A DNA stretch of 64,000 nt from Raja brachyura (taxonomy: Eukaryota). The notes under the pieces were generated by a model. That model worked only from the letters and a program-made list of their open reading frames with translations, was not told where the DNA came from and did no database searches. How positions within the stretch are numbered: position 1 is the stretch's first letter; the number at the start of each line of letters is the position of its first letter. The stretch is taken from contig OY740797.1 of the NCBI GenBank assembly GCA_963514005.1, positions 6,138,001 through 6,202,000 of the forward strand. Reading direction: 5' to 3'. Position numbers and translations under genes: made by a program. Positions 18,396 through 22,779 of the stretch are shown here, piece after piece.

Positions 18396-18993
18396 ATTAG
18401 CAATGATTTCCATTTTTATCAACAATGTTCTTTTATTGTTTCTGACAACTATTATCATCCTGCAAGATAATACAGAAACATTGAGACACAAGGAACTGCA
18501 GATGCTAGAATCTTGAACAAAACACAAAGAGCTGAAGGAACTCAGTGGGTCAGGCAGCATCTGGGGACGAAAGGGCAGGTGATGTTTTGGGTCGAGACCC
18601 TTCCTCAGACTGAAACATGACCTGTTCATTCCCTCCCGAGATGCTGCGTGACCCGCTGAATTCACAAGTAGTTTGAGAATGGAGGAACATTCATTTTTAT
18701 ATCTAACTTTTTCAATGTCAATTGTTACATAATGATTCCTACAACAATCATATTCTTGATACATTCAGTACAGATCTGGCCATTTGTGTTTCTGAAGGCT
18801 CAGAAGGATACTTGCAATTGCAGAATTGTGTTCAACTGTATTCCAACACAATCTGTCTGCCAAAGCCTACTAGATCTCTCAGTTGCTAAACACTTTTCAC
18901 TCCCTTTCCCATTCCCACACGGACTTTTCAGTCCTAGGCCTTCTCCATTGCAACAGTGCTTCCACATGGAAACTGGAGGAACAGCACCTCATA

Positions 18994-19199
18994 TGTAGAT
19001 ATGTGTGTATACCTTTAAATATAGTGATATATCCACCACTAACCACTCCCCTTACCATTCAGTATAATTGTGACCTTCCCACCCCTGTCTCTCTCTCTCT
19101 ATCATCCGTGACAGACCACGTACAGCTAGGGCTGCGATGTATTTGACTAGTGAATAAAATAGTAGTAAAGACTCTGTGTGTTAGAGACCATTCTTTACA
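18994..19199 (+). mobile_element. LTR (~206 bp) followed by a tRNA-Leu PBS
   Basis: TGTA...TACA termini, TATAA (~19063), AATAAA (19153), followed immediately by TGGTGTCAGAAGTGGGAT. Confidence 0.75.
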
Positions 19200-19245
19200 T
19201 GGTGTCAGAAGTGGGATACGAACCCACGCCTCCAGGTGGAGACCA
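19200..19245 (-). pseudogene. Reverse-transcribed 3' half of mature tRNA-Leu(CAA) including CCA
   Basis: Minus strand TGGTCTCCACCTGGAGGCGTGGGTTCGTATCCCACTTCTGACACCA; matches the recalled vertebrate tRNA-Leu(CAA) 3' half outside the variable loop except at A58. Confidence 0.85.
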
Positions 19246-19678
19246 TTCTTTACATCGAAGACCAAAGATAGGCCCAAAATGCTGGATTATTTCAGCGGGT
19301 CAGGCAGCATCTCTGGAGGGAAGGAATAGGAGATGTTTTGGGTCGGAAATCTTCAGACTGAAAGATGGGGGGGGGGGGGGGGGAAGAGAAGGAATAGGAG
19401 ATTTTTCGGGTGGGAACTCTTCAGACTGAAAGATGGGGGACGGGGGGGAGATTGGAGGTGAGCAAAGGCCAGAACAAATCAGGGGCGGCAACAGATGACC
19501 TCAGGAAGAGTGGAGATGTGCTAATAAGAGAGATACAAGGAATGGAATGGTGGAACTGGCAGGGTGACTAGGGTGGGGAGGGAAGGACTGTTGGAGTTAC
19601 TTGAAATTAGAGAAATCAACATTCATACCACTGAGTTGTAAGGTGCCCAAGCCAAATATGAGGTGCTGATCCTCATAT

Positions 19679-21910
19679 AACCATATAACCATATAACAAT
19701 TACAGCACGGAAACAGGCCATCTCGGCCCTTCAAGTCCGTGCCGAACAACTTTTTTCCCTTAGTTCCACCTGCCTGCACTCATACCATAACCCTCCATAC
19801 CCTTCTCATCCATATGCCTATCCAATTTATTTTTAAATGATACCAACGAACCTGCCGCCACCACTTCCACTGGAAGCTCATTCCACACCGCTACCACTCT
19901 CTGAGTAAAGAAGTTCCCCCTCATGTTACCCCTGAACCTCTGTCCCTTAATTCTAAAGTCATGTCCTCTTGTTTGAATCTTCCCTATTCTCAAAGGGAAA
20001 AGCTTGTCCACATTAACTCTGTCTATCCCTCTCATCATTTTAAAGACCTCTATCAAGTCACCCCTTAACCTTCTGCGCTCCAGAGAATAAAGACCTAACT
20101 TATTCAACCTATCTCTGTAACTTAGCTGTTGAAACCCAGGAAACATTCTAGTAAATCTCCTCTGTACCCTCTCTATTTTGTTGACATCCTTCCTATAATT
20201 GGGCGACCAAAATTGTACACCATACTCCAGATTTGGTCTCACCAACGTCTTGTACAATTTTAACATTACATCCCAGCTTCTATACTCAATGCTCTGATTT
20301 ATAAAGGCTAGCATACCAAAAGCTTTCTTTACCACCCTATCTATATGAGATTCTACCTTCAAGGAACTATGCACGGTTATTCCCAGATCCCTCTGTTCAA
20401 CTGTATTCTTCAATTCCCTACCGTTTACCATGTACGTCCTATTTTGATTTGTCCTGCCAAGGTGTAGCACCTCACATTTATCAGCATTAAACTCCATCTG
20501 CCATCTTTCAGCCCATTTTTCCAACTGGCCTAAATCACTCTGTAGACTTTGGAAATCCTCTTCATTATCCACAACACCCCCTATCTTGGTATCATCTGCA
20601 TACGTACTAATCCAATTTACCACCCCTTCATCCAGATCATTGATGTACATGACAAACAACAAAGGACCCAACACAGATCCCTGAGGCACCCCACTAGTCA
20701 CCTGGCTCCAACCCGACAAACAGCCATCCACCATTACCCTCTGGCTTCTCCCATTCAGCCACTGTTGAATCCATCTTGCTATTCCTGCATTTATACCCAA
20801 CAGTTGAACCTTCTTAACCAACCTTCCATGAGGAACCTTGTCAAAGGCCTTACTGAAGTCCATATAGACAACATCCACTGCTTTACCCTCGTCAATTTCC
20901 CTAGTAACCTCTTCAAAAAATTCAAGAAGATTAGTCAAACATGACCTTCCAGGCATAAATCCATGTTGACTGTTCCTAATTAGACCCTCTTTATCCAGAT
21001 ACTTATATATATTATCTCTAAGTATCTTTTCCATTAATTTGCCCACCACTGAAGTCAAACTAACCGGTCTATAATTGCTAGGTTTACTTTTAGAACCCTT
21101 TTTAAACAATGGAATAACATGCGCAGTACGCCAATCCTCGGGGACTATTCCAGTTTCTAATGACATTTGAAATATTTCTGTCATAGCCCCGGCTATTTCC
21201 ACACTAACTTCCCTCAATGTCCTAGGGAATATCCTGTCAGGACCTGGAGACTTATCCACTTTTATATTTTTCAAAAGTGCCAGTGCTTCTTTTACTTTGA
21301 AACTCATAGTATCCATAGCTACTCTACTAGTTTCCCTTACCTCACATAATTCAATATCCTTCTCCTTGGTGAATACCGAAGAAAAGAAATTGTTCAATAT
21401 CTCCCCCATCTCTTTTGGCTCTGCAGATAGCTGTCCACTTGGTCTCTCCAATGGACCAATTTTATCCCTTGTTATCCTTTTGCTATTAACATAGCTGTAG
21501 AAACCCTTTGGATTTACTTTCACCTTACTTGCCAAAGCAACCTCATATCTTCTTTTAGCTTTTCTAATTTCTTTCTTTAGATTCTTTTTACATTCCTTAT
21601 ACTCCTCAAGCACCTCATTTACTTCATGCTGCCTATAATTATTGTAGATCTCCCTCTTTTTCCGAACAAGATGTCCAATTTCCCTTGAAAACCAGGGCTC
21701 TTTCCAATTTTTACTGGTTCCTTTCAACCGAACAGGAACATAAAGATTTTGTACTCTTAAAATTTCCCCTTTAAATGTCCTCCATTTCTCCTCTACATCT
21801 TTCCCATAAAACAAAATGTCCCAGTTCACTCCTTTTAAATCATCTCGCATCTCGTTAAAGTTAGCCTTTCTCCAATCAAAAATCTCAACCCTAGGCCCAG
21901 TTCTGTCCTT
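19679..21910 (-). mobile_element. 5'-truncated CR1 LINE with an uninterrupted RT ORF
   Basis: ORF 19760-22105 (NYRPVSLTS, DFSKAFDKV, GVPQGSVLGP, YADD); (TTATATGG)n tail; candidate TSD CTCATAT (19672-19678 / 21911-21917); first ~60 aa of the ORF are flanking sequence. Confidence 0.93.
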
Positions 21911-22779
21911 CTCATATTCCAGTTGGATAGCTTGCAACCCAATGTCCCATCCCCAGATAAAACATACTCCATACCTCTCCATTACATGTTCCCCACTCAC
22001 CGTATAGCTATGCCCTCTACTGGTGGACGTTTCCACCCTGGGAAAAGCTTGGTGCGGGAGCATGGCGATTCTTTGCATACTCTTCCCAGGAAAGGACCAA
22101 TACAAGAATGATCTGATGCAATCAGTCTACTATTTTAAATGTGGTGTCGCAGCAGTTGAGCTGCTGCCCGACAGCGCCAGAGACTCGGGTTCAATCCCGA
22201 CTACGGGTGCTGGCCGATGGAGTTTGTACCTTCTCCCCATGACCTGCGTGGATTTGCTCAAAATCTTCTGTTTCCTCCAACACTCCAAAGACGTACAGGT
22301 TTGTAGGTTAATTTGCTTGGTATAAAATGTAAATTGTCCCTTAAGTGCATAGGATAGTATTTTGTCACGGTATACATGACAATAATAAACATTAACCTAA
22401 TCAACGACCACTCTCATCCCGGTCACTCCCTCTTCTCTCTCCCATCAGATTAGATCAGCCATGATTGAATGGCGGAGTAGGCTTGATGGACCGAATGGCC
22501 AAATTCACTTATGATCAGGCAAGTGGTACAGAAGCTCCTCTATCTTCTGAAGAAGAGGTCTCGACCTGAAACATCACCCATTCCTTGTCTCCAGAGATGC
22601 TGCCTGTCCCCCTGAATTACTCCAGCACTTTGTTTTTTATCTGCAATCAAAAAATAAAACCTAGTTTTAGTTATTTAACCAGCACTACCGGAGTAAGTTT
22701 GTGCAGAAGCAATTGATGTTCTGCATTGGGTGCAAGAGGATTGCAGAGCAGTGTTGAGAAAACTGCTGGGGATATGCCA

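Follow-up and report, generated by a model that had tools for sequence, protein, structure and literature searches.

Strong-stop read-through as the probable origin of LTR copies joined to extended tRNA-Leu(CAA) complements in Raja brachyura

The window, a stretch of 64,000 nucleotides from Raja brachyura, contained an LTR that ran directly into a complement of tRNA-Leu(CAA) and then returned to the LTR end. Plus-strand strong-stop DNA is a copy of U3-R-U5 together with the 3' end of the primer. The window locus was very probably formed from over-extended DNA of this type, which switched template by microhomology, acquired two LTR ends and was likely inserted by integrase, the reverse transcriptase (RT) having passed or stalled at modified bases of the tRNA. 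Related junctions were found throughout the genome. They amounted to at least 356 read-through insertions, and details were taken from 90 of the first 100 listed. The earlier note had described the locus as an integrated aberrant strong-stop product. This description held at the locus and was extended to a genome-wide class with three more modification signals, at C47d, G37 and G26.

The window locus and its LTR family

All first-reader coordinates at the LTR/tRNA junction were verified on the sequence, namely an LTR, an 18-nt primer binding site (PBS) and a 46-nt tRNA complement with its only mismatch at 19218, opposite A58 (Table 1). The complement occupied 19200-19245 and was identical, except for 19218, to the tRNA-Leu(CAA) genes L155 and L156. 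As had been predicted, these genes had A58 and no encoded CCA; they also contained an intron. The window copy had the correct base opposite C47d (19235). ARAGORN detected no tRNA gene in the window. GAGACCA was present twice at the locus, at 19184-19190 and 19239-19245. Positions 19239-19254 repeated the final 16 nt of U5, with the GAGACCA part overlapping the tRNA copy, and TTCTTTACA, the last 9 nt of U5, directly followed the tRNA copy. The lone mismatch at 19218 proves little, and the case is made by the population of copies.

Table 1. Features at the window locus (positions in the window)
Feature	Position	Strand	Basis or remark
Left target site duplication (TSD), TCATA	18989..18993	+	Inside old host repeat
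Ty3/Gypsy-type LTR, 206 bp, TG...CA	18994..19199	+	Repeat family; paired LTRs, purine tract and 5-bp TSDs in family copies
U5 end from which the repeated tail derives	19184..19199	+	Sequence
Complement of tRNA-Leu 76-59, 18-nt PBS including non-encoded CCA	19200..19217	+	tRNA gene comparison
A in place of T opposite tRNA A58	19218..19218	+	Likely m1A58 misincorporation
Read-through copy of tRNA-Leu(CAA) 57-41, ACCT-loop isodecoder	19219..19245	+	tRNA gene comparison
GAGACCA, 7-nt microhomology at the switch	19239..19245	+	Sequence; microhomology enrichment in the class
Regenerated U5 end ...TTTACA, TTCTTTACA	19246..19254	+	Sequence
Block at the right junction, likely inserted later	19255..21911	-	Inverted host-repeat piece and LINE
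Inverted host-repeat piece	about 19256-19677	-	Repeat comparison
Young 5'-truncated LINE	19678-21911	-	98.6-99.3% identity to other LINE copies; RVT_1 match
Displaced right TSD, TCATA	21912..21916	+	Left host repeat continues from 21917 on

The window LTR was confirmed as a high-copy repeat in the 2.7-Gb genome, with 2381 candidates, 40 of them scored, and 96.5-98% identity to the five family copies compared. Copies with an ordinary PBS had paired LTRs of 200-210 bp, a purine tract (PPT) before the 3' LTR and 5-bp TSDs, and reached lengths of up to about 4.5 kb. The Pfam domain scan refers to a related family that shares the PBS and to which the internal parts of the window family align. The domain order there was RT, RNase H and integrase, which assigns it to Ty3/Gypsy, and no env family was matched in the scan. 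The Mag clade of Ty3/Gypsy, characterised by a tRNA-Leu PBS, short LTRs and a single ORF, is a candidate placement of the element.

Full-length copies of the window family had a PBS of only 13 nt, mostly with a C at position 4 that mismatches tRNA A73, so the 18-nt stretch at 19200..19217 was likely copied from the tRNA. Genome-wide, 403 such short-PBS junctions were found with a slightly different prefix. The C mismatching A73 was present in 81 of 100 listed short-PBS copies of the window's superfamily; the PBS of the element, like that of Ty1/Ty3, therefore apparently does not come from the primer. A second U5-tRNA contact through GAGACCA, proposed in the earlier note together with conservation of this heptamer in U5, was not borne out. 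GAGACCA occurred at two LTR ends among the 90 read-through copies and in none of 27 short-PBS copies; within the window family the heptamer varied and was kept in 20 of 32 ends. It acted as microhomology at the window locus and is not a conserved primer contact. A different motif, CGYCTCC, was observed at bases +25 to +31 past the LTR end in 22 of the 27 short-PBS copies (L275-L304). It complements tRNA 49-47f, skipping the T arm, and its C/T variation preserves G-U pairing. CGYCTCC may be part of a bipartite PBS, located downstream rather than in U5, and would be a better candidate for extra pairing than GAGACCA, with the proviso that a single 7-mer could arise by chance.

The immediate flanks of the window copy, TCATA and TCGAA, did not form a TSD. 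A one-ended insertion or a deletion was considered and dropped after the displaced TCATA at 21912 had been found. The host repeat interrupted at 18993 picked up again at 21917, after the second TCATA, and the two sides overlapped by exactly 5 bp when compared with a single repeat copy that had no interruption (74-82% identity). The continuation after 21912-21916 showed a median identity of 18/30 to 29 repeat continuations, and the site ranked second among the 60 TCATA sites of the window in this respect. The right TSD, 2.66 kb away, is thus assigned from one uninterrupted repeat copy and the rank test. Since the host repeat resumes with a 5-bp overlap, integration of the window copy likely left a normal 5-bp TSD, as at L045, L059, L062 and L114. 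These four loci share its U5-tail design and have a perfect TSD; L061 has the same design.

Between the LTR copy and the displaced TSD, an inverted host-repeat piece was joined to the tandem tail of the young LINE, the two forming a single block placed precisely at the LTR end. The block was likely inserted after the LTR copy, at its junction, and was possibly a co-mobilised unit. No close source of the intervening sequence (19256-19720) was found among 40 scored candidates, and a search using the LINE 5' end gave no match. Contigs of four public runs at the locus were mostly repeat matches; one piece entered the LTR by 26 nt, which was below the bridging threshold. Positions 18490-18665 contained a palindromic repeat belonging to the family seen in the right flank. 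The repeats of the host may resemble those of sharks and rays.

Genome-wide junctions and base signatures

The LTR end followed by the 18-nt PBS gave 792 exact matches genome-wide, of which 356 ran on into the tRNA T arm, and reversed control patterns gave none. Further loci with an LTR and an extended tRNA copy, which the earlier note had suggested looking for, are therefore numerous. With the 403 short-PBS junctions added to the 792, the read-through share was about 30%, a figure that counts surviving copies and is not an error rate. The 90 examined junctions were all different, none being common to two copies, and the copies came from many LTR families. In this class, a full LTR lay upstream and the CCA 3' end of the tRNA was flush with the U5 end. 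The template was mature tRNA, with CCA present and the intron absent. T58 in the tRNA genes, a non-repeated LTR or a 46-nt extension in all family members, any of which the earlier note had set against its reading, did not occur.

The base opposite A58 was A in 44, T in 38, C in 5 and G in 3 of the 90 copies, so that 52 were mismatched. Opposite C47d, the third base of the variable loop, 62 of 71 copies were mismatched, mostly with A. Unconstrained non-CpG positions showed mismatches in about 2% (20/1017); positions 57-50 had been preset in the search pattern and were unusable as controls. A58 was present in 10/10 genes of each of two overlapping gene sets. C47d was present in all 17 intron-bearing genes found, and the sole match with T was itself a read-through copy. 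In the 15 copies whose LTRs were at least 99% identical, position 58 was mismatched in 11 and 47d in every one of the 11 that could be scored there, so that decay does not account for these mismatches. Stops were also position-specific. Position 38 was reached by 20 copies, 19 of which ended within 3 nt of G37. Seven copies passed G37 genome-wide, all of them intronless and located after an LTR-like ...ACA end; five had a mismatch at G37 and all seven exited within 2 nt of G26.

These errors and stops likely mark the methylated bases m1A58, m3C47d, m1G37 and m2,2G26 of tRNA-Leu(CAA), with the chemistry deduced from the signatures. Zebrafish tRNA-seq (tRAM-seq) shows RT signatures at m1A58, m3Ce2/47d, m1G37 and m2,2G26, which are methylations of the Watson-Crick face, in the part of the report available (PMC11417395). 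In that part, m3C47d is listed for Leu-CAG and Ser and not for Leu-CAA, for which the supplements may be relevant. An intron-containing tRNA-Leu(CAA) gene cluster was located at G000:C13:9.47-9.49 Mb (L169-L174). The intron-bearing tRNA-Leu(CAA) genes tested were mis-called as tRNA-Thr by ARAGORN.

Metagenome contigs contained 28 loci of the same kind with 17 distinct junctions, and locus boundaries were compared manually. Only 3 of the 17 junctions were mismatched opposite 58, and a Gypsy pol match lay nearby at four loci. The U5-tail design was present at five metagenome loci (L307, L313, L316, L318 and L322), which are DNA of other organisms. In four of these five, the copy was flanked by 5-bp repeats, each pair differing at a single position.

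Junction structure, mechanism and alternatives

Most copies re-entered internal element sequence and not U5. A pol protein match was found within 400 nt after the tRNA in 70 of 90 copies. Landing sites within 120 nt (n = 64) were sense in 56 and antisense in 8 cases and ranged from pol codon 2 to 1382. Microhomology at the switch averaged 3.4 nt at nine exactly mappable junctions compared with 0.8 nt in simulation (P about 2e-5), and 2.75 nt at 24 junctions. Other U5-tail copies had homology of only 1-2 nt. The first 50 loci, 40 of them with 9-kb flanks, comprised 28 with a second LTR and a TSD, four with a regenerated U5 tail and a perfect TSD, five with two LTRs lacking a clear TSD and 13 with ends not assigned. 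Integrase-type TSDs were thus present at both ends of 32 of these 50 copies.

The sequence of events suggested by the earlier note, in which RT reads the primer beyond position 58, misincorporates at that position and switches back to the end of U5 before the product integrates, was supported. RT would bypass m1A58 and m3C47d, in both cases mostly inserting A, would usually halt at m1G37 and would never pass m2,2G26. The over-long 3' end would be unable to prime at the PBS and so would pair with a different nascent strand over 0-8 nt. The simplest choice of partner would be a minus strand that had stalled, at the window locus after only about 16 nt, and whose 3' end took part in the pairing; back-slippage on the same template may be an alternative. 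Completion of both strands would yield two LTR ends, which integrase would join to the target. The antisense landings need extra switches.

Several unusual copies were observed. In L074/L256 and L310, a second PBS or tRNA copy followed the regenerated U5 end, as if the switch had hit a still-primed template. In the fold-back products L049, L061, L067 and L154, sequence of U5 or of the tRNA came after the tRNA copy in inverted orientation. L003, L005, L011 and L013 had one common junction right after the 18-nt PBS. They represent a non-autonomous derivative that was amplified, in contrast to the read-through copies, each of which has its own junction.

Microhomology of 0-8 nt, filler at some junctions, the eight antisense landings and complex multi-piece junctions would also fit a model in which RT makes the over-extended strong-stop DNA and host end-joining (microhomology repair), not template switching, fuses the cDNA pieces before integrase acts. 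This model is unlikely, since the partners are overwhelmingly element sequence, as the pol matches indicate, and mostly in sense orientation. Moreover, the copies finish at the PPT and the 3' LTR, as expected from completion by RT, and the exit points follow RT-blocking positions. Far less probable is that LINE activity placed a 5'-truncated tRNA retrocopy at the end of a solo LTR and duplicated 16-17 bp of target sequence. A 17-bp direct repeat surrounds the window tRNA piece and young LINEs are active in the genome, but CCA exactly abuts the LTR end in 356 loci, with no LTR-independent dispersed insertion, and most loci lack such a repeat and continue into an internally deleted element with LTR-type 5-bp TSDs. 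The flush CCA/LTR junctions and the 5-bp TSDs ruled it out as an explanation of the class. Hardly any weight is given to an inherited non-autonomous subfamily in which the tRNA extension belongs to the regular internal sequence and variation stems from mutation or extinct isodecoders: some 18-nt-PBS derivatives share one junction over several copies, so that such derivatives can amplify, but 90 of 90 read-through junctions differ and are spread over many LTR families, mixed bases remain in near-identical young copies and no T47d gene was found among the genes examined.

Comparison with known systems and significance

An error of this type is already known from retroviral systems; the integrated genomic class is apparently new. 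No report of such a genome-wide class, or of tRNA modifications read from one, was found in the literature search, which left most subscription and older papers outside. Pulsinelli and Temin reportedly described in 1991 strand-transfer-error deletions in retroviral vectors that started at the PBS and showed little homology in the faulty plus-strand transfer, and some of these deletions are said to have followed late termination of strong-stop DNA. Those were single-round vector clones in culture, whereas the copies described here form a fixed germ-line Gypsy population with a position-resolved modification signature. The strong-stop model of Ohshima and Okada for the origin of tRNA-SINEs reportedly joined tRNA to LTR sequence, with minus-strand strong-stop DNA as the hypothesised intermediate. 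Tailless tRNA retropseudogenes (PMC5322556) are likewise truncated genomic copies of tRNA, but are reportedly LINE-mediated. Unlike in these retropseudogenes and in that model, a full U3-R-U5 precedes the tRNA copy here, and the TSDs are 5 bp long.

In Ty1/Ty3, synthesis of the first plus strand continues into the tRNA, and the PBS of the element itself does not come from the tRNA; the yeast product ends after about 12 nt and is a dead end within the particles, as far as the accessible text of PMC5371799 describes it. In contrast, the tRNA copies found here comprised 30-62 nt and were rescued and integrated. For HIV-1 and HTLV-1, the sections available of two reports (PMC8599865, PMC11251516) state that plus-strand strong-stop synthesis halts at m1A58 and that products reading through are neither completed nor integrated. 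In the present genome, hundreds of them were integrated with TSDs, position 58 was passed with a mismatch and hard stops occurred at G37 and G26. The four positions are the same as in the zebrafish tRAM-seq data, to the extent that these are covered by the part of the report cited above, but here they were written into the germ line by an endogenous RT, and the 47d signal is on Leu-CAA.

With fair rather than high confidence, it is proposed that m1A58 is no reliable stop in animal Gypsy elements primed by tRNA-Leu, and that read-through followed by random rescue is a major route to internally deleted copies with two LTRs, which make up about 30-45% of the surviving 5' junctions here. With the same reservation, the copies would record germ-line tRNA modifications in a form that can be dated and resolved by isodecoder, among them an m3C47d on tRNA-Leu(CAA) that has not been reported, and this record could be read from any animal assembly. 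The integrated class contradicts the usual statement that read-through beyond m1A58 of the primer yields non-integrating DNA. Its hundreds of independent events provide in vivo statistics on RT bypass and template switching. Germ-line tRNA modifications and the choice of primer isodecoder become readable from DNA alone and can be dated by LTR divergence, also in species without tRNA-seq. The process accounts for a large class of deleted LTR elements, as well as for tRNA-like fragments that annotation tools would label pseudogenes.
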